Assembly (NCBI GenBank): GCA_964475465.1
Contig: CAYYXA010000047.1
Coordinates: 20,466 to 84,465 of the forward strand
Source of the DNA: an uncultured Brevinematales bacterium
Lineage (GTDB): Bacteria > Spirochaetota > Brevinematia > DTOW01
Reading direction: 5' to 3'
DNA length: 64,000 bases
Part shown: positions 18,156-43,204 of the stretch, piece after piece
Numbering within the stretch: the stretch's first letter is position 1
Layout of the letters: every line of letters begins with the position of its first letter
Made by a program: the position numbers and the translations under genes
The notes under the pieces: generated by a model
What the model saw: the letters and a program-made list of their open reading frames with translations, nothing else
Told to the model about the DNA's origin: nothing
Databases searched by the model: none

Positions 18156-18544
18156 CCTTAGTTTAATAATAAACCAAAGATAAGTTTTATTCAAGTTCTG
18201 GGATATTCTATTAAGAGTTTCAATGGGAAGATATAGTTATTCTCTACGTTTCGTGCTCTTTTTGTTTAAAACACTGTGTATAAAAACTATGTAACTACAA
18301 GAGTAGTTATTTCCAATTGAAGAGATTTTCTTAGGTGATCATTTTGAAAAAGTTAATTAAGTTTTGCAGATTTTTTGTTTTGTGTTGTATATTTTTATGG
18401 ATTTGGAGGTCGAGTATGATAGACTTCGGTAGGCTCATTAAGGAAAGTTTGTCTTTTAGCAAATCTGAGAGTTTACCGAAGTTTCAGGAATTAAAAAACG
18501 AGGTTAGTGAAGACATGGACTCTTACTATAAGGAGGTGGTGTAT

Positions 18545-20659
18545 ATGGGTAGAGGAAGTAAAATTTTGGTAGTTGTATCTTTGGCGTTAGTGGTGATAGG
18601 AGCTTTTCTATTTTTGTTATGGGACAAGTTGCCTTTTATATCTTCCTCAGAGCCAATTGCTAAAGTTCAAACTTCTACGGAAAAGGTTATTCAGCTGAAG
18701 CAGCCACAAAGTATAAATGCTAAGGTGATAATGGCTTACGGTGATGTCAAGGTAGTTAATTTGGGAGAGATTTCTGATGTAGATGTTGGTTATGTTCTCA
18801 GGGATGGCGATGTGATTCAGACGGGCCCAGACTCGGAGTGTGAAGTCCAAATTTCTGATAGTGGTATTTTGAGAATAACAGAAAATTCTTCTGTTTCATT
18901 ATCCGAGATAATTTTTGCTGCAAGTAAAAAGACTGATAGAGAGGCTTTTGTTATGTCTGGATCGGTAAAAGCAGCTTTCAAAAAATTGCCAAAGGGCGAA
19001 ACTTTTAAAGTTAAAACGGAAACAGCAATTGCTGCTGTAAGGGGTACTAAGTTTTCTGTTAGCGTTGAGGAGCAAGGTAAGACTAGGTTAGTTGTTACTG
19101 AAGGCAAAGTTATTTTTGCTCCTAGGATATCAAAACTTGAGGAGGTGAAAAATGTGACAGAGGATGAAAAAGTTAGAGAGAGGATTTCGGAAATAGAATT
19201 GAGTGGTGGTATTCTTGTGGATGGTGGTAAAAGGGCAGAGATCACTCCAAAAGCAAAGTTTGAGGCTGAGAAGAGTGTTAGCAATGTGATTGTGAAGATG
19301 GAGGATGCTATTGTCAAAGGAAAAGTAGATGATGAGGTAATTTCCAAAGTTGGAAAAGCTGTTGCTTCACTAGGAAAGAAGGATTTAGTCAAAAAGAGTA
19401 GAGCTGAGACTCGTGAAATCGATGAAATTGAAAATCAAGTTTCGAAAGACTTTGTGGGGGATGCTACTGTTAGGATTACCGTTGTACCTAGTGGTAAAGA
19501 AGTTGAAGGTGCTGAGGTTTATGTTGATGGGATTTTCATGGGTAAGATTCCTTTGTCTAAGATGTTGGTTTGGGGTAAGAAGTATGAGCTTGTGGTCAGG
19601 AAAAATGAAGAAACTATCTACTCATACGAGTTTGAAGCAAGTAAGGATATGAAAATAGAAATTAAGCCTAAGAAGGAGGGTAAGGAGCTATCTTCGATGC
19701 CTTTAGCCCAAAAGAAAGAAGAGATTGAGTTTATCTCCAAAAATATTGATTTTGTACCAGCGATTTCGTATGGTAAGGTTGGATTTTACTCAGGAGATTA
19801 TATAGCTATTCCTTCTCACTCTGGTGTCGCTTTTGTTTATGGTAACAAAGTGAAAACAATACCAACTAAAGAATTTATCTCTATGGGGTTTGGAAATGAT
19901 TTGATAGCTGTTATTTCAAGGGGTGAGGATGAAAAGAGATTTGTTAGAGTGTTTTCATTTGATGGTAATTTAGTTGCTGAATTTGATATAAGTGAGGTGT
20001 CTAAGGGATTACTTTCGGTAGGTGGAATTGCTGTTGTTTCGAAGAAAGTTATAGTTCCTATCCTGGATGGTGTGGGTATTATTGATATACCTTCTGGGAA
20101 TATAAGAGTTGTTAATCTGGGTAATACTTTCTCAGATATTGGTTCGCTAGGTGATTCTGCTGTAGTTGTTAATGAGATAGGAGAAGTTTACAAAGTTGGT
20201 TTGGATGGTTCTGCCTCTAAGATAGGGCAACTTAGTTCAACTTCTGTTAGAAGAGGCGTTGTTTTGACTCATTCGGACGGAAGTATATATGTTTTGCATA
20301 AAGGTAGGTTGTACAGTTTTGGTTCTAAAAACTATGTTAGCAATTTGGGAGTTTCTGATGCTTTTGGAGCTATATATGGTAACGAGATTGTTCTAAATGC
20401 TGGTACTAAGGTAATAGTTGTTGACAGAGATTCTGGTAAAGTTCTTGTTTCGGTAGACACTGTTGGTAAAGTTAACGGAGTACCTTATCTGAAAGACAAT
20501 TATCTAGTTATTACTGCCTCTGATGGTCTTCATATTTACAATCTATCTACTGGTAAGGAAGAAAAGTCGTACGATATAGTTGGCTATGCGTCACTGATCA
20601 AAAATGGTAACGTGTACGTAATAGGAAAGTCAAAGATGTTCATAATACCGATGAAGTAA
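18545..20659 (+). CDS. Membrane-anchored FecR-domain protein with a predicted PEGA-like domain and a C-terminal beta-rich (propeller-like) region.
   Basis: A GGAGGTG RBS precedes the ATG at 18545. There is an N-terminal TM helix, a FecR signature (VLRDGDVIQTG...AAVRGTKFSV) and a PEGA-like segment (ITVVPSGKEVEGAEVYVDGIFMGKIP). Confidence 0.65.
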   Translation: MGRGSKILVVVSLALVVIGAFLFLLWDKLPFISSSEPIAKVQTSTEKVIQLKQPQSINAKVIMAYGDVKVVNLGEISDVDVGYVLRDGDVIQTGPDSECEVQISDSGILRITENSSVSLSEIIFAASKKTDREAFVMSGSVKAAFKKLPKGETFKVKTETAIAAVRGTKFSVSVEEQGKTRLVVTEGKVIFAPRISKLEEVKNVTEDEKVRERISEIELSGGILVDGGKRAEITPKAKFEAEKSVSNVIVKMEDAIVKGKVDDEVISKVGKAVASLGKKDLVKKSRAETREIDEIENQVSKDFVGDATVRITVVPSGKEVEGAEVYVDGIFMGKIPLSKMLVWGKKYELVVRKNEETIYSYEFEASKDMKIEIKPKKEGKELSSMPLAQKKEEIEFISKNIDFVPAISYGKVGFYSGDYIAIPSHSGVAFVYGNKVKTIPTKEFISMGFGNDLIAVISRGEDEKRFVRVFSFDGNLVAEFDISEVSKGLLSVGGIAVVSKKVIVPILDGVGIIDIPSGNIRVVNLGNTFSDIGSLGDSAVVVNEIGEVYKVGLDGSASKIGQLSSTSVRRGVVLTHSDGSIYVLHKGRLYSFGSKNYVSNLGVSDAFGAIYGNEIVLNAGTKVIVVDRDSGKVLVSVDTVGKVNGVPYLKDNYLVITASDGLHIYNLSTGKEEKSYDIVGYASLIKNGNVYVIGKSKMFIIPMK

Positions 20660-36307: not shown

Positions 36308-36337
36308 TTGAAATAAGTTGTTTATTTCTGCTATAAT
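36308..36337 (+). promoter_or_regulatory. Sigma-70 promoter TTGAAA-18-TATAAT upstream of tRNA-Asp.
   Basis: TTGAAA is at 36308-36313 and TATAAT at 36332-36337. The tRNA starts 14 nt downstream. Confidence 0.45.
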
Positions 36338-37432: not shown

Positions 37433-40357
37433 ATGAATCTTTATCTTTATTGTATGAATAAGTTTGTAATTTTGTTTTTTGTTTTCTTCTTCTTGTTAGT
37501 TAATTTTGTTTTCCCATTCGGGAAAAATAAGGTAAACTATTCTACTGCTAGCTGGTATGTTTATGAACTTGGGAATTATAAGCTTTTCCTTGATATATCC
37601 CAGACAAATATTTTCAAATATGTTGTTAGGGCGATAAAGGATTCAGATGAAAAGCTGAGGGCACTGACATTTAGGGATTTGAGTGAGACATTTCCTGTTA
37701 TAGTTTTTGCTAATCAGATAGAGTTTCAAGCGAATAATATTGTTGATGGGTTTATAGGTGAAGGAACAGGAGGGTTTACCGAAGGACTTAAAAATAGGTT
37801 GGTTATTCCTATGAATGGGAATTTAGGGTTTTTTAAGAGAGTTTTGAATCATGAGATGGTACATGTTTATCAATTTGATACTATCAAAGGGGCCAAGAAT
37901 AAAAGAGTTCTTGGAGATGTTTTTGTCCCTCTTTGGTTTATTGAGGGAATGGCAGAGTATTACTCCGTTGAGTGGGATTTCTATTCTGAGGAGGTCTTGA
38001 GGGATATAGTCATTAACAATAGAATTGTACCTCTTGATAGACTCTCAGATCTTAATTCTCTTAGGCCTGATGAGTATTATTTAGTGTACAAGCAGGGTCA
38101 AGCTTTCTTGAAATTCATCGGAGACACTTATGGTAAGCAGTCCGTATATAAAATTTTTAAAGGTTACCTTAACGGTGATAAGGATCCTTACAAAACGGTG
38201 TTAGGTAATAGTTTAATTGATTTAGAGAAAGCTTTTGTTTTTTCCGTTAGGAAAAAGTATTTGCCAATGCTTAGTGAGTATGATGAAGTTCTTTCTTTTG
38301 CTAACCAAATAGATAATACTAGGTTTGGTGAAACTCCCTATCAGAAGTTTATACCTACCTTTGTTTCTAGCAATACTGTTGCGTTTTTAACGTACAAGGA
38401 TATCTACCCTAAGATTGTGCTTTATGATGTAAGGGAAAAGAAAATAATCAAGGATTTGGTTATAGGTGGCTTCAATGAGAATTACCTTGAGTTTCATATA
38501 ACTAGGAACAATGTCGCTGTATCGACTAATGGTATAATGGTTTTTGTTTCGAAATCTGGTGGTAAGGATGCTATAAATGTGTATGATTTGAATAGAAATT
38601 TTTCGTATCAAGTCAAGTTTGATAGAATATTTATAATATCATCACCTGATGTATCTTTAGACGGCAAACTTGTTGCATTTAGCGGTTTTGATAATGTGAG
38701 TGAGGATATATATATCTACAACCTTGAGACAAAAGAACTAAGGAAAGTTACGGATGATATGTTTTATGATGCTGAGCCTAGGTTTTCTCCTGACAAGAGT
38801 AGTGTGTTCTTTGTTTCAACGAGAAACAAAGAAAGCATATTTTCGCAGGATACTGATATATATAGGCTTAACCTAAGTACAGGTGAGATTGATAAATTTA
38901 TAGATTTAGGCGGAGAGGAGCAGAATCCCTTTGTTTCTCAGGATGGTGAATATTTGCTATTTGTTTCCACTATTGATGGTGTCAGAAATATATTTATCTA
39001 CGACTTCGATAATGGAAAAGTGTTTAGAGTGTCGAAAGTTATGACCGGTGCTTTTTCGCCTAAGCTTGACCCATCTGGTAATACTCTGATTTTCTCATCT
39101 GAGAATAATTTATTGTACGATATATACTACAAAAACTTTTCACTGACTGATTTGGTGAGTAATGAAGTTAGTAACTACGTTTACGTTTATGAAAATTCAA
39201 AATCTAACTTTTTGGCTGAGAAATCGAGGATAGAGGGGATAGAAATAAGGGACTATTATAGTTATAGTATTATTCCAACGGTTGACTACGTAACTGGTGG
39301 GTTTAGTTTGAGTTCTGACTTGGGGTTTATGCTTTTGCTCGGTGCAAGTTTTAGTGATTTGCTTGGTGATCAGAGACTCTCAATAATACTTAACAACATG
39401 TATCTGCAAAGTTATGGGACTTTCAACCTCTCTGAGATTAATATTTTGGTTTCTTATATAAATCTCAAGTATTACTTTGATTTTGGTTTTCAGTTTTATA
39501 ACATTAGGGATTACTTTTTCTCTCTGATGAATTTCTTTGTTTATCCTTCTGTTTTCTATCAAGTTGAGCCTAGTTATTATTCGAAGGCTGGCTTCAGTGG
39601 ATTTTTGATGTATCCTTTTTCAACGTTTTCCAGGCTAGAGTTGTCTTTTGAGCATTCTGACTACTTCTGGGTACCAATTTATGATTACTATAATAACGTT
39701 TTTCACGACAATTTCATGTACTCAATGAATACTTTATCTCTTAGCTATGTTTACGATGCTACGCTTTGGAGTGTTGTTGGTCCGGTAGATGGTATTAGGT
39801 CACAGGCAGTATTTTCATACTCTCCAAAGTTTGTTCCTAGTGATAAGAGTTTCTTTTCGACTGTATTTGATTTTAGAAAATACTTTATGATAACCGTCAT
39901 TGATACTCTTGCTTTCAGGTTTGTTGGGGGGTATAAGTTTGGGCTTGATGCTGATTCTTTTCCATTTTACGTTGGCGGTGTAGGGACTCTGAGGGGATAT
40001 GATTTTAAGGAGTTTAGTGGTAAGTTGTTATTTCTTTCCAACTTAGAACTAAGGATAGCACTTATAAGAGCACTGTTGGGGCCATTTGGTTTCTCTTTCC
40101 CACCAGTTTTTGGTTCTCTTTTTGTAGATGCTTCCTTGATAGGTGACGATATAATGAAGTTTCAACTTACTAGTTTTGATTCGAATGAAGGAGTTTATAA
40201 GCTAAAAGATCTTAAGGTTGGTGTGGGGGTTGGGATTGGCATTGCTCTGGGAGTTGGGTTTAAGCTGAGGTTTGACTTTGCTTCTCCATTTGATGGTAGA
40301 AGGCTTCTCGATGCTAAGGATTGGAAAACGTACTTTCAGCTAGGGTACGAGTTCTAG
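37433..40357 (+). CDS. Large secreted or outer-membrane protein. It has an N-terminal HExxH (zincin-like) domain, PD40/TolB-like beta-propeller repeats and a C-terminal beta-barrel ending in Phe.
   Basis: A signal peptide is present. HEMVH lies within LNHEMVHVYQFD. There are repeated TolB-like blades (LDGKLVAFSG, PRFSPDKSSVFFVS, PFVSQDGEYLLFVS, FSPKLDPSGNTLIF). The C-terminus is aromatic-rich and reads ..WKTYFQLGYEF. The true start may instead be MNKF at 37454. Confidence 0.55.
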   Translation: MNLYLYCMNKFVILFFVFFFLLVNFVFPFGKNKVNYSTASWYVYELGNYKLFLDISQTNIFKYVVRAIKDSDEKLRALTFRDLSETFPVIVFANQIEFQANNIVDGFIGEGTGGFTEGLKNRLVIPMNGNLGFFKRVLNHEMVHVYQFDTIKGAKNKRVLGDVFVPLWFIEGMAEYYSVEWDFYSEEVLRDIVINNRIVPLDRLSDLNSLRPDEYYLVYKQGQAFLKFIGDTYGKQSVYKIFKGYLNGDKDPYKTVLGNSLIDLEKAFVFSVRKKYLPMLSEYDEVLSFANQIDNTRFGETPYQKFIPTFVSSNTVAFLTYKDIYPKIVLYDVREKKIIKDLVIGGFNENYLEFHITRNNVAVSTNGIMVFVSKSGGKDAINVYDLNRNFSYQVKFDRIFIISSPDVSLDGKLVAFSGFDNVSEDIYIYNLETKELRKVTDDMFYDAEPRFSPDKSSVFFVSTRNKESIFSQDTDIYRLNLSTGEIDKFIDLGGEEQNPFVSQDGEYLLFVSTIDGVRNIFIYDFDNGKVFRVSKVMTGAFSPKLDPSGNTLIFSSENNLLYDIYYKNFSLTDLVSNEVSNYVYVYENSKSNFLAEKSRIEGIEIRDYYSYSIIPTVDYVTGGFSLSSDLGFMLLLGASFSDLLGDQRLSIILNNMYLQSYGTFNLSEINILVSYINLKYYFDFGFQFYNIRDYFFSLMNFFVYPSVFYQVEPSYYSKAGFSGFLMYPFSTFSRLELSFEHSDYFWVPIYDYYNNVFHDNFMYSMNTLSLSYVYDATLWSVVGPVDGIRSQAVFSYSPKFVPSDKSFFSTVFDFRKYFMITVIDTLAFRFVGGYKFGLDADSFPFYVGGVGTLRGYDFKEFSGKLLFLSNLELRIALIRALLGPFGFSFPPVFGSLFVDASLIGDDIMKFQLTSFDSNEGVYKLKDLKVGVGVGIGIALGVGFKLRFDFASPFDGRRLLDAKDWKTYFQLGYEF

Positions 40358-41263
40358 CGAAAGCTTCTTCATCAGTTCTTCAAATTCCTTTGGTAAGTCT
40401 ATTTCAAAGAACATTATCTCATCCCGTGAGGGATGAGGAAAAGAAATCTTCTTTGCTACTAGCGGTATAAACGATTCAGGTAAATTGAATTCTTTTATTT
40501 GTTTGCTTGCTTGTGGGTTGTATGTTGCGTCTCCTACGATTGGGTGTCCTACGCTTTTCAAGTGTACTCTTATCTGGTGTGTTCTGCCCGTTATTGGTCT
40601 TGCTTTTACTAAGGAGTATTTGCCGTTGGTTGCCAGAAGCTCAAATTCTGTTATTGCTTGCTTGCCATCAGGAACTATTGCCATCTTTAACCTGTTTTTT
40701 GGGTTCCTACCAATTGGTTTGTCTACTGTGAAGCTTTTTAACTCTACTTTCCCATTCACTATTGCCCAGTACTCTTTGTACACTTTCCTTGACTTGAATA
40801 GAGAAGATAGTATTGCGTGTGCTTTGTCATGTAGAGCTATTACCATTAGTCCTGATGTCTCTTTGTCAAGTCTGTGTACTATTCCAGGCCTTGTATAGCC
40901 ACCTACGAAAGAGAGTTTGTCTTTGAGATTGTAGAGTAAAGCATTTACTAGTGTGCCGTTCCAATGTCCCGGAGCGGGGTGTACAACCATGTTGTATGGT
41001 TTTTCTATCACTGCTATGTCATCGTCTTTGTATAAAACCTTTAGTTCTATGGGTTCTGGAGCAATATCACATACTTCTGGAACTATGTCCTCGAATTCTA
41101 TTATGTCTCCTTCTTTTGCTTTGTAACCGAAATGCTTGGGTTTGCCGTTTACAAATACCTCTTTTACCTTACCTTTTATTTGGCTTCTTGTGTAGTTTGT
41201 GTACCTTGAGATTATGACATCTATTCTGTGGCCAGCGTCGTTACTTGTTACTACTATCCTCAT
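40340..41263 (-). CDS. rluD: RluA-family 23S rRNA pseudouridine synthase (RluD-like).
   Basis: It has an S4 domain plus the catalytic motif (HRLDKETSGLMV). Confidence 0.85.
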   Translation of the reverse strand: MRIVVTSNDAGHRIDVIISRYTNYTRSQIKGKVKEVFVNGKPKHFGYKAKEGDIIEFEDIVPEVCDIAPEPIELKVLYKDDDIAVIEKPYNMVVHPAPGHWNGTLVNALLYNLKDKLSFVGGYTRPGIVHRLDKETSGLMVIALHDKAHAILSSLFKSRKVYKEYWAIVNGKVELKSFTVDKPIGRNPKNRLKMAIVPDGKQAITEFELLATNGKYSLVKARPITGRTHQIRVHLKSVGHPIVGDATYNPQASKQIKEFNLPESFIPLVAKKISFPHPSRDEIMFFEIDLPKEFEELMKKLSLELVP

Positions 41264-41876
41264 AAGACGACAGCACTGTTATCACCTCTTCTGCTAATAG
41301 GTTGGGTAAAATTTTACCACATACCTCTTTGTTAAATACTTTTGATATGAAAAAGGTTTGCTTTATTCTTATTCCCTTTGCCTTACATAGGTTTACAAAA
41401 TCTTTGTAAGTGAATAGATGGATGTTTGGGGTATCAAACCATGAGTACGGTAATTCCGAACTTACTGGCATTGTGCCTTTAAGTAGCAACTGTAATCTTA
41501 GTTTGTAATATCCAAAGTTAGGAAAGCTGATTATTGCGTTTTTGGATATTCTGAGTATTTCTTCAAGTAGGAGTCCGGGAGATTTTAGCTGCTGAATGGT
41601 TTTGCTTACTATCACATAGTCAAATGCTTTATCTTCTATCTCTAGGAAGTTTCTGTCTTTGAAGCCCTTGTTTATGTCATAATGTATCACGTTTAATCCT
41701 TTTGATAAGCATTCTATTACTTCGGAAGTGTCAATCTCTACTCCTACACCTTTTATGTTTTTCTTTCTTTTGAGATATACAAGTAACTCACCATCACCAC
41801 AACCTAGATCTAGAACTCTGCTGCCTTCTTCTATTATTTCTTCTATTATTTCGAAATCTTTCCTAACCTTTTTCAT
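41241..41876 (-). CDS. metW: Methionine biosynthesis protein MetW.
   Basis: It has a MetW-like N-terminus (FEIIEEIIEEGSRVLDLGCGDGELL). It lies immediately downstream of metX. Confidence 0.75.
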   Translation of the reverse strand: MKKVRKDFEIIEEIIEEGSRVLDLGCGDGELLVYLKRKKNIKGVGVEIDTSEVIECLSKGLNVIHYDINKGFKDRNFLEIEDKAFDYVIVSKTIQQLKSPGLLLEEILRISKNAIISFPNFGYYKLRLQLLLKGTMPVSSELPYSWFDTPNIHLFTYKDFVNLCKAKGIRIKQTFFISKVFNKEVCGKILPNLLAEEVITVLSSYEDSSNK

Positions 41877-43101
41877 AGACTTTCTCTTTTTTGTTCTGTT
41901 TTTCTTGAAGTGTGGCCTCAAGGAATGCTCTTATAGCCTTGCTTTCTATTTCTGTGTCTATGAGGAATGAGTCGTGTCCATTTATGCTTTCTATGTTTAT
42001 GTATGATACATCTCTACCAGCAGCTAGTGCTGCTGATACCATTTCTAATGATTCCGAAGGGGGGAATAACCAGTCAGTTGAGAATGAGATAAAGAGAAAT
42101 TTACTGTTAGTTTTGCGGAATACTTCTTTTAAGTCCCCGTTTCCGTATTTTTCAGTTAGGTCGAAGTAGTCCATCGCTTTTGTTATGTATAAATATGAGT
42201 TTGCGTCAAATCTGTTCACGAATTTTTCACCTTGATAGCCTAGGTAACTTTCCACTTCAAACTCTATGTTGTCAACATCGTATGTTTTGCCGTTTATGAG
42301 CTTCCTACCGAATTTCATGTCCATGGATTTCGAACTTAGATAGGTGATATGTCCTATCATTCTGGCAATACTCAGGCCTTTTGAAGGAGTCTTGCCTTTT
42401 TCTAGGTATTCTCCGTTTTCCCAATTAGGATCGGAAATTATAGCGTTTCTACCCACTGCATCGAATGCTATGTTTTGAGCCGAACAACTTGCCGTTGCTG
42501 CTATCACAACAGCACTTTCGACTACTTCTGGATACATTACTGACCATTCGAGTGCTTGCATGCCGCCCATCGAGCCACCTACAACCGCTAGAAGCTTTTC
42601 TATACCTAGCTGCCTTATTAGCTCTCTTTGGACTTTCACCATGTCCGATATAGTTATCGTTGGAAACGTTATTCCGTACCTCCTGCCCGTTTTGGGATTT
42701 ATTGACGTTGGGCCAGTAGTACCATAACAGCTTCCTAAGAAGTTTGAACATATTACGAAAAACTTGTTTGTATCTATACCTTTGCCAGGACCTATTACAT
42801 CTTCCCACCACCCTTCTGTAGATCCATCAAATGTTTCTTCATCCACCATTTTATGGTAACCTGCAGCATGCGCTGAACCTGATAAAGCATGACAAACGAG
42901 TACAACATTGCTTTTATCATCATTCAGTGTGCCATAAGTTTCATAAGCTACATCTATAGGTCCTGGTAAAATCTCCCCAGACTCTAATTCTAGCCCTTCT
43001 GGAAATATCTGTATGATGTTAGTCTTTACAAGCCCTACTGTTTCACCTTTTAACTCTTCAACTATGTTCCCAGTTCTCTTCTTTCTTAAAACCTTATACA
43101 T
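41863..43101 (-). CDS. metX: Homoserine O-acetyltransferase.
   Basis: The alpha/beta hydrolase nucleophile elbow is present (GGSMGGMQA), with a MetX N-terminal region (ELESGEILPGPIDVAYETYGTLN). The start is placed at MYKVL; the upstream RBS is weak. Confidence 0.8.
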   Translation of the reverse strand: MYKVLRKKRTGNIVEELKGETVGLVKTNIIQIFPEGLELESGEILPGPIDVAYETYGTLNDDKSNVVLVCHALSGSAHAAGYHKMVDEETFDGSTEGWWEDVIGPGKGIDTNKFFVICSNFLGSCYGTTGPTSINPKTGRRYGITFPTITISDMVKVQRELIRQLGIEKLLAVVGGSMGGMQALEWSVMYPEVVESAVVIAATASCSAQNIAFDAVGRNAIISDPNWENGEYLEKGKTPSKGLSIARMIGHITYLSSKSMDMKFGRKLINGKTYDVDNIEFEVESYLGYQGEKFVNRFDANSYLYITKAMDYFDLTEKYGNGDLKEVFRKTNSKFLFISFSTDWLFPPSESLEMVSAALAAGRDVSYINIESINGHDSFLIDTEIESKAIRAFLEATLQEKQNKKEKVYEKG

Positions 43102-43204
43102 TTCTGTGTAAGATCTTTTATAAATTTTATATAAATAAAGAAAAATTTTCAAATTTTCAAAATTTGAAAACTGTCTGTTGATCTTACAAGTATTTCACAA
43201 CTTC

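Follow-up and report, generated by a model that had tools for sequence, protein, structure and literature searches.

What does a protein do that joins a metallopeptidase domain and a β-propeller to a β-barrel of the outer membrane, and on which side of that membrane does the enzyme lie? The question is raised by one gene in a stretch of 64,000 nucleotides (hereafter the window) from an uncultured Brevinematales bacterium (contig CAYYXA010000047.1, positions 20,466 to 84,465 of the forward strand), where an open reading frame (ORF) on the plus strand encodes a protein of 974 residues. An earlier note, made from the sequence of the window, had read this protein as a zincin-like domain followed by a TolB/PD40 propeller and a C-terminal barrel. 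The three-part composition is upheld by profile searches, by an AlphaFold2 model and by fold searches, and the assignment of the three domains can be regarded as almost certain. The protein is exported via the Sec pathway and is an outer-membrane protein of the Omp85 superfamily, where it falls into the POTRA-less subfamily catalogued as “WD40-like Omp85”. The peptidase-propeller module most likely faces the periplasm. As a whole, the protein would then work as a periplasmic zinc peptidase that is tethered to the outer membrane and acts on envelope proteins, a mechanism in which we place slightly better than even confidence.

Domain composition of the protein

The AlphaFold2 model, built from 79 homologues, is a confident one (mean predicted local distance difference test score, pLDDT, 89.6; predicted template modelling score, pTM, 0.89). 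It lays out an α/β peptidase domain (residues 41-290), a propeller (residues 296-568), a linker of 47 residues and a barrel of 16 strands (residues 616-971). This architecture as a whole has no match among solved structures in a Foldseek search (TM-score normalised to the query ≤0.25). The reading frame itself is confirmed in the ORF list, full-length homologues measure 960-976 residues, and the strings that the earlier note had quoted are all located in the translation: HEMVH (residues 140-144), SPDKSSVFF (residues 452-460), SQDGEYLLFVS (residues 502-512), SPKLDPSGNTLIF (residues 542-554) and the C-terminal QLGYEF. This is a native, intact gene: its guanine-plus-cytosine content (0.345-0.357) equals that of the surrounding window DNA, and a relative of 90% identity is followed by the same downstream genes in the same order.

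The N-terminal domain shows what defines a gluzincin of clan MA, namely an HExxH motif and, further downstream, a glutamate predicted to be the third zinc ligand, on a fold like that of thermolysin. The Pfam family Peptidase_MA_2 matches residues 74-268 with 33.1 bits (cut-off 32.4). In enzymes of families M1 and M9 the zinc receives its third ligand from the glutamate of the xEG motif, and a tyrosine further along the chain stabilises the transition state. When a profile of the N-domain is compared with solved structures, these elements find their counterparts: HExxH pairs with the same motif in M9 and M1 chains, “WFIEGMAEY” with “WWSEGIAEY” and “WFEEGSAEF” of M9 collagenase as well as with “LWLNEGFA” of M1 aminopeptidase, and “YKQGQ” with “YRWGY” and “YKYGY” of M9 collagenase, which share the conserved tyrosine. 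In an alignment of 79 full-length homologues (mean identity to the query about 27%) the invariant columns include H140, E141, H144, E171, E175 and Y219. Likewise, HExxH is kept in 119 of the 120 first-round homologues, the lone exception being an N-terminally truncated fragment, and the HExxH...xEG pattern recurs in 139 of 142 further representatives at 50% identity. The invariance of the catalytic residues across phyla points to a complete catalytic set under purifying selection, and the zinc peptidase is probably active. The earlier note had allowed for a non-catalytic look-alike. The invariance of the full set, predicted third ligand included (H140, H144 and E171), speaks against this, and its reading of HEMVH and the downstream glutamates as gluzincin-like stands.

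To which peptidase family does the domain belong? The nearest folds are those of secreted M9 collagenases and M30 proteases, and the domain resembles M9 microbial collagenases, hyicolysin and lugdulysin of M30, and M1 aminopeptidases in its catalytic fold and in the motifs HExxH...(W/F)xEGxAE(Y/F)...Y. However, its sequence similarity to the M9 and M1 chains in the Protein Data Bank is only marginal (E 1e-3 to 3e-2). Membership of the M9 collagenases was considered and rejected, the query having no Peptidase_M9 match and its relatives reaching 21.8-24.1 bits against a cut-off of 26. With about 260 residues, the domain lacks the activator domain of M9 collagenases, and the N- and C-domains of M1 enzymes are likewise missing; judged by its sequence, it belongs to neither M9 nor M1 proper. 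Two near-invariant motifs are specific to the family. Variants of the type GG[FV]TE are shared by about 220 out of 261 proteins of the family; the GxMEN motif of M1 enzymes offers a parallel, and the GGFTE segment may accordingly be a substrate-binding edge strand. The second motif, FG[KQR]NK[VI], sets the family apart from M9, M30 and M1 peptidases and is found in 229 of the same 261 proteins, at a median position of 27 and a median of 111 residues upstream of HExxH.

The N-terminus of the window protein consists of a short basic stretch and a long hydrophobic run, of which residues 11-26 form a low-confidence helix in the model, and across 150 representatives of the family the conserved N-domain sets in at about residue 20-40. 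The segment reads as a signal peptide, which is presumably cleaved. A second ATG at nucleotide 37454 (M8) lies where the homologue P0001 (90% identical, 967 residues) begins, and may be the true start; with either start codon, an exact-sequence look-up found no identical protein record. The N-terminal segment with FGKNKV behaves differently in two models: the full-length one places residues 31-40 with confidence, and a model of the N-domain alone places residues 27-36 poorly. This suggests that the segment packs against another domain, where it could serve as a latency or plug element or as a docking strand.

The barrel that the earlier note had expected from an aromatic-rich C-terminus (the share of aromatic residues is 22% over the final 359 positions against 16% elsewhere) is confirmed and can be specified as a 16-stranded barrel of the Omp85/BamA type rather than additional propeller blades. 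It shows the features of the Omp85 superfamily (PF01103): a BamA-homologous barrel of 16 strands, the (V/I)RG(F/Y) motif of loop 6 (L6) and the strand-13 motif. The NCBIfam model Omp85_fam matches residues 765-974 (E 1.5e-11), the relatives exceed the Pfam Omp85 cut-off (42-61 bits against 24), and a barrel-only profile spans the entire barrel of Fusobacterium nucleatum BamA (E 9e-14), followed by Escherichia coli BamA and TamA. In the model L6 sits between strands 11 and 12, as in BamA, and “GGsktlRGYd” of the family aligns with “GGGNSLRGYD” of F. nucleatum BamA. Similarly, “slFlDigsvW” aligns with “VVFADAGRAW” of the same protein; the family consensus is LFxDxG, its final glycine being a serine in the window protein. 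E872 and R874 are invariant too and align with BamA, and the barrel looks functional as an Omp85 by these residues.

Nevertheless, the protein differs from BamA and TamA in what precedes the barrel, where a zinc peptidase and a TolB-like propeller take the place of the POTRA domains. No POTRA family came out of the Pfam scans, which reached up to E 1 or 10, and in the model the propeller-barrel linker is too short for a POTRA domain and has the wrong order of secondary structure (helices at residues 571-577 and 587-601 and one three-residue strand by DSSP, all unconserved in the alignment consensus). Lacking POTRA, the window protein is not an orthologue of BamA, TamA or PlpD. The NCBIfam Omp85_fam and TamA scores lie far under their cut-offs. 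The absence of POTRA agrees with the POTRA-less subfamilies described by Heinz and Lithgow (2014; PMC4104836). Within the window, both the Omp85 barrel and the N-domain occur just once.

Between peptidase and barrel, the model shows six four-stranded blades, matched by Pfam PD40 repeats (E 3e-11) and by the NCBIfam TolB propeller (residues 369-559, E 9e-26). The TolB-like PD40 character proposed in the earlier note therefore holds, and its plural does not: a single six-bladed propeller is present. It is possible that the resemblance to TolB is functional, and that the protein is a Tol-Pal-like tether or remodeller whose propeller binds a Pal-like or peptidoglycan-associated lipoprotein, while the peptidase trims peptidoglycan-linked peptides or tethering lipoproteins and so links the outer membrane to cell-wall dynamics. 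TolB proteins are indeed the best propeller matches by sequence and by structure, but the likeness covers only the propeller half of TolB and leaves out its N-terminal, TolA-binding domain; a TolB equivalog was rejected at 90.8 bits against a TIGR02800 cut-off of 343.15, with only profile positions 205-387 aligned. Moreover, PD40 propellers are generic companions of peptidases (DPP IV, tricorn, S9), and the window protein, unlike TolB, is tied covalently to the outer membrane and stands outside any tol-pal context, with no tol or pal genes near the family gene in any locus examined. We consider a Tol-Pal-like role very unlikely. Precomputed Pfam labels of Tricorn_N and Tricorn_2nd on the propeller are generic propeller matches and give no evidence for a tricorn protease.

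Table 1. Features of the window protein and their positions in the window
Feature	Residues	Position	Strand	Basis
Whole ORF: peptidase, propeller and Omp85-barrel outer-membrane protein	974 residues	37433..40357 (including stop codon)	+	ORF list, full-length homologues, AlphaFold2 model
Signal-peptide-like segment	1-28	37433..37516	+	Hydrophobic run FVILFFVFFFLLVNFVF after MNK; read from sequence
FGKNKV motif, predicted mature N-terminus	29-34	37517..37534	+	F29, G30, N32 and K33 conserved in at least 90%
Gluzincin (clan MA) metallopeptidase domain	29-290	37517..38302	+	
GGFTE motif, 23 residues upstream of HExxH	113-117	37769..37783	+	G114 invariant; G113, F115 and E117 conserved in at least 90%
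HEMVH, zinc-binding/catalytic motif	H140, E141, H144	37850..37864	+	Invariant in 79 aligned homologues; aligns with HExxH of M9 and M1
EGMAE, predicted third zinc ligand followed by E175	E171, E175	37943..37957	+	E171 and E175 invariant
Predicted catalytic, transition-state-stabilising tyrosine	Y219	38087..38089	+	Invariant; role by comparison with M1/M9 enzymes
Six-bladed PD40/TolB-like β-propeller	296-568	38318..39136	+	
Sequence-variable linker with two helices	569-615 (47 residues)	39137..39277	+	Not POTRA
16-stranded Omp85-type β-barrel, ending in ...GYEF	616-974	39278..40354	+	β-signal-like C-terminal Phe
Loop-6 RGY motif, Omp85 hallmark	R854, G855, Y856	39992..40000	+	R854 invariant; G855 conserved in at least 90%
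FVDAS of strand 13, counterpart of Omp85 (F/G)xDxG	897-901	40121..40135	+	D899 invariant; F897 conserved in at least 90%

Orientation and proposed mechanism

The earlier note had placed the protein in the toga of a member of the Thermotogae. This attribution is not sustained, since the SecY encoded in the window is 81% identical to that of Brevinematales/Brevinematia metagenome-assembled genomes (MAGs), with the next matches at ≤54%, and the nearest named relatives of the protein itself (63-65% identity) are from Brevinematia. In addition, the contigs of relatives carry genes with the Pfam domains CfpA_C and TP_0747_N, which we take to be spirochaete proteins. By these sequence comparisons the host is a Brevinematia spirochaete, and the envelope in question is thus the spirochaetal outer membrane.

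How is the module placed relative to this membrane? To our knowledge, every Omp85 protein characterised so far has the beginning of strand 1 in the periplasm. In the model the odd-numbered loops are long (24 residues in L3, 28 in L6 and 22 in L7) and the even-numbered turns short, which fits the canonical topology and would leave the N-terminus in the periplasm. The only enzyme-Omp85 fusion to have been tested is PlpD, whose patatin domain was once thought to be secreted and has been shown experimentally to be kept in the periplasm, in a study that also judged translocation after folding to be energetically implausible (PMC11116518). PlpD and FplA, formerly grouped under “type Vd secretion”, resemble the window protein in carrying an enzyme N-terminal to an Omp85 barrel; however, PlpD is a homodimeric patatin phospholipase with one POTRA domain, whereas the window protein combines a gluzincin with a propeller and has none. 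Taken together, the start of strand 1, the loop lengths, a globular module of about 570 residues that is unlike passengers secreted unfolded, the PlpD precedent and the operon partners in other phyla (see below) make a periplasmic orientation the most likely one, and the term “surface-anchored” used in the earlier note describes an unproven and less likely arrangement.

The corresponding alternative is a surface-displayed or secreted protease, in which the barrel would export its own peptidase-propeller passenger in the manner of type V (Vd-like) secretion, for example for nutrient acquisition. An N-terminal passenger ahead of a C-terminal barrel is the layout that such a system would need, but the passenger here consists of two stably folded globular domains, unlike the β-helical passengers of known systems, and POTRA, which the known Omp85 translocases have, is missing. 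The helix at residues 587-601, just before strand 1, superficially recalls autotransporter linkers, yet the linker that contains it is unconserved. The closest peptidase folds are those of secreted enzymes, and surface translocation was raised as possible for enzyme-Omp85 fusions (Heinz and Lithgow, 2014; PMC4104836); against this, the protein that served as a model for the idea, PlpD, turned out to be periplasmic (PMC11116518), and so, by their appearance, are the operon partners in related clades. Finally, Omp85 barrels have their lumen filled by L6 and their strand 1 in the periplasm, and the conserved RGY, E872 and D899 fit this arrangement. Surface display of the peptidase is, in our estimation, unlikely.

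With the module in the periplasm, how might the protein work? The β-barrel assembly machinery (BAM) would insert the barrel into the outer membrane by way of the C-terminal Phe signal. Since strand 1 would start on the periplasmic side, the peptidase-propeller module would hang below the outer membrane, at the position that POTRA occupies in BamA, and could act there as a zinc endo- or oligopeptidase tethered to the membrane, with the propeller as a platform for substrate docking or gating. The intact barrel, with the RGY of L6 presumably locked to strands 12 and 13, might simply fix the enzyme to the inner side of the outer membrane or, alternatively, engage unfolded β-barrel clients. The most probable role would be the processing of envelope proteins or their degradation in quality control, and the protein could then be seen as a fused functional analogue of BepA acting at BAM. 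BepA is a periplasmic zinc metalloprotease of family M48 with a quality-control role, and a protein-interaction domain keeps it at the site of outer-membrane assembly. The likeness is one of function, and no homology is claimed: BepA belongs to the unrelated M48 family, carries a tetratricopeptide repeat (TPR) domain where the window protein has its propeller, and is soluble or peripheral rather than fused to an Omp85 barrel.

Family distribution and operon context

The earlier note had held that a fusion of this kind would be unusual. Instead, the architecture is spread over many phyla and has already been catalogued. More than 776 homologues appear in the first search and at least 398 genome loci are confirmed; among the matches listed are Spirochaetota, Ignavibacteria, Bacteroidota, Gemmatimonadota, Calditrichota, Zixibacteria, Eisenbacteria, KSB1, Latescibacterota, Marinimicrobia and others. 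Representatives at 50% identity that match the N-domain profile at E ≤1e-30 number 1,536, the best-scoring of which are mostly 900-1130 residues long. Heinz and Lithgow (2014; PMC4104836) defined the “WD40-like Omp85” subfamily by PD40 repeats (PF07676) and an Omp85 barrel (PF01103) in the absence of POTRA, and their Table S3 gives the best TolB templates (2ivz/2w8b) together with a “best aminopeptidase hit” (M1; 1z5h, 4kxd, 4fgm); Rhodothermus marinus and Caldithrix abyssi are among the species whose proteins it lists. A paper of 2024 sums up the group by its “divergent WD40 and peptidase domains”, and another states that these Omp85 subfamilies “have not been well characterized”. The window protein has the PD40/TolB-like propeller upstream of the Omp85 barrel and the aminopeptidase-like region further upstream that mark the subfamily; its architecture is identical, and we see no substantive difference. 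The gene is a new Brevinematia member of a catalogued, functionally uncharacterised family, to which it adds no new principle. The 2014 survey (PMC4104836) does not discuss the conservation of catalytic residues, the FGKNKV motif or the BamB-like/PEGA neighbourhood, and the linkage to BamB-like and PEGA genes is not mentioned in the literature found on the family. A paper on Borrelia BBJ25 that also came up is unrelated to it.

Why would such a family deserve attention? Omp85 proteins are central to the building of the outer membrane, and their POTRA-less subfamilies are without an assigned function. Here a peptidase clearly under selection is joined to a barrel of BamA type, in many phyla that have been little studied. 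Its substrate, and the side of the membrane on which it cleaves, would show how the Omp85 scaffold has been reused beyond protein insertion, and could reveal a route of envelope quality control in bacteria that do not have the E. coli set of periplasmic proteases.

The gene neighbourhood in other phyla gives a further hint. The next gene encodes a BamB-like lipoprotein on the same strand in 32 of the 72 loci with enough downstream DNA, often with stop and start codons overlapping by a few bases (L004-L006, L009, L010, L012-L016, L019, L020, L022, L024-L026, L030, L031, L035, L037, L040, L044, L048, L051, L052, L055, L060, L062, L064, L069, L075 and L078; examples are L019:10754-11923 and L031:11991-12761). 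The lipoprotein has about 380 residues and a PQQ_2 propeller (E 1e-28 to 1e-54), in most cases with a lipobox. A PEGA-domain protein then follows in 16 loci, 11 of them encoding a C-terminal hydrophobic segment. To judge by their sequences, these partners look periplasmic. In a neighbour-joining tree the linked genes, a translationally coupled set with those for the lipoprotein and the PEGA protein, form one clade of Bacteroidota–Ignavibacteria–Gemmatimonadota type, and paralogues from some of the same phyla form a second, unlinked clade; both kinds occur in one Ignavibacteria MAG (SZUA-254), where L075 is BamB-linked, L067 is unlinked and the two fall into different clades. The operon speaks for a family at work in envelope biogenesis or quality control. 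In L035, a 1373-residue “fusion” of the family gene with the BamB-like gene proved to be an artefact of the ORF caller, an out-of-frame, Arg-rich ORF in high-GC DNA, and does not represent a Rosetta-stone fusion.

It is possible to read the same operon differently, with the protein as an insertase or assembly factor of the outer membrane: a BamA paralogue whose propeller would be the scaffold for clients and partners in place of POTRA and BamB, and whose peptidase-like domain would be mainly a binding or chaperone module. This would build on the idea of a “BamA-BamB fusion” (Heinz and Lithgow, 2014; PMC4104836), and it would account for a barrel that retains all Omp85 hallmark residues, for a TolB-like propeller that could dock partners and for the BamB-like lipoprotein encoded next door in one clade. 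However, the general base E141, the three zinc ligands and Y219 are strictly invariant across phyla, which argues for retained catalysis. POTRA is missing here as well, and according to the same survey (PMC4104836) such subfamilies occur beside a canonical BamA. An insertase role is improbable on this evidence, and it is not mutually exclusive with that of a protease.

Returning to the tethered periplasmic peptidase, a more elaborate version would be a self-contained outer-membrane “degradase”, in which the seam of the barrel engages stalled or misfolded β-barrel or envelope proteins and passes them by way of the propeller to the gluzincin for destruction, together with the BamB-like lipoprotein and the membrane-anchored PEGA protein in the linked clade. 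The invariant N-terminal FGKNKV segment could be the latency or plug element of such a machine. If true, this would be an unrecognised and widely distributed machine of envelope quality control in parallel to BAM and BepA, but the proposal is a tentative one and we think it rather doubtful.

Several points weigh against an outer-membrane-tethered peptidase of envelope proteins as the function of the window protein. The Peptidase_MA_2 score barely exceeds its cut-off, and homology is the sole ground for the orientation. The BamB-like/PEGA operon is missing from the window and from all Spirochaetota loci examined; in the tree the window protein groups with Brevinematia in a separate Spirochaetota clade, so that the operon context transfers to it only indirectly. 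Its own neighbours in the window are housekeeping genes, which give no functional hint. Lastly, a literature search returned no experimental or functional study of any family member, only the 2014 survey and passing mentions.

Gene neighbourhood in the window

The gene is preceded by genes for a tryptophanyl-tRNA synthetase, a radical-SAM protein (QueE-like) and an ornithine carbamoyltransferase, and converges on a minus-strand gene for a pseudouridine synthase (RluD-like), the two 3′ ends overlapping by 18 nucleotides (40340-40357). No terminator-like site was found between these two genes, and a scan for promoters and terminators around the gene gave counts no different from those of shuffled sequence. 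The lone strong sigma-70-like site of the region (36308-36337, plus strand; 11 of 12 matches, with the TG of an extended -10 element) lies upstream of the ornithine carbamoyltransferase gene. The gap from that gene to the peptidase-propeller-barrel gene is 67 nucleotides and contains no promoter-like site, which suggests that the two may be co-transcribed. In more distant Brevinematia and in other spirochaete loci the neighbours are unrelated housekeeping genes.

Two further genes of the window can be mentioned. At 18335-20659 on the plus strand, 17 kb upstream of the gene discussed here, lies an ORF of 774 residues with a FecR domain (E 7e-16), a sub-threshold PEGA match (residues 390-423) and, near its C-terminus, sub-threshold PQQ_2 repeats of BamB type (residues 685-739); domains of the same types make up the proteins encoded in operon with the family gene in other phyla. 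At 41241-43152 on the minus strand, an α/β-hydrolase (MetX-like) and MetW are encoded by separate ORFs that overlap by 59 nucleotides. On the contig of the 90%-identical relative (L084:4086-5939), a single called product of 617 residues carries both the MetX-like and the MetW domain, which could be a genuine fusion or the outcome of a frameshift or of divergent gene calls.

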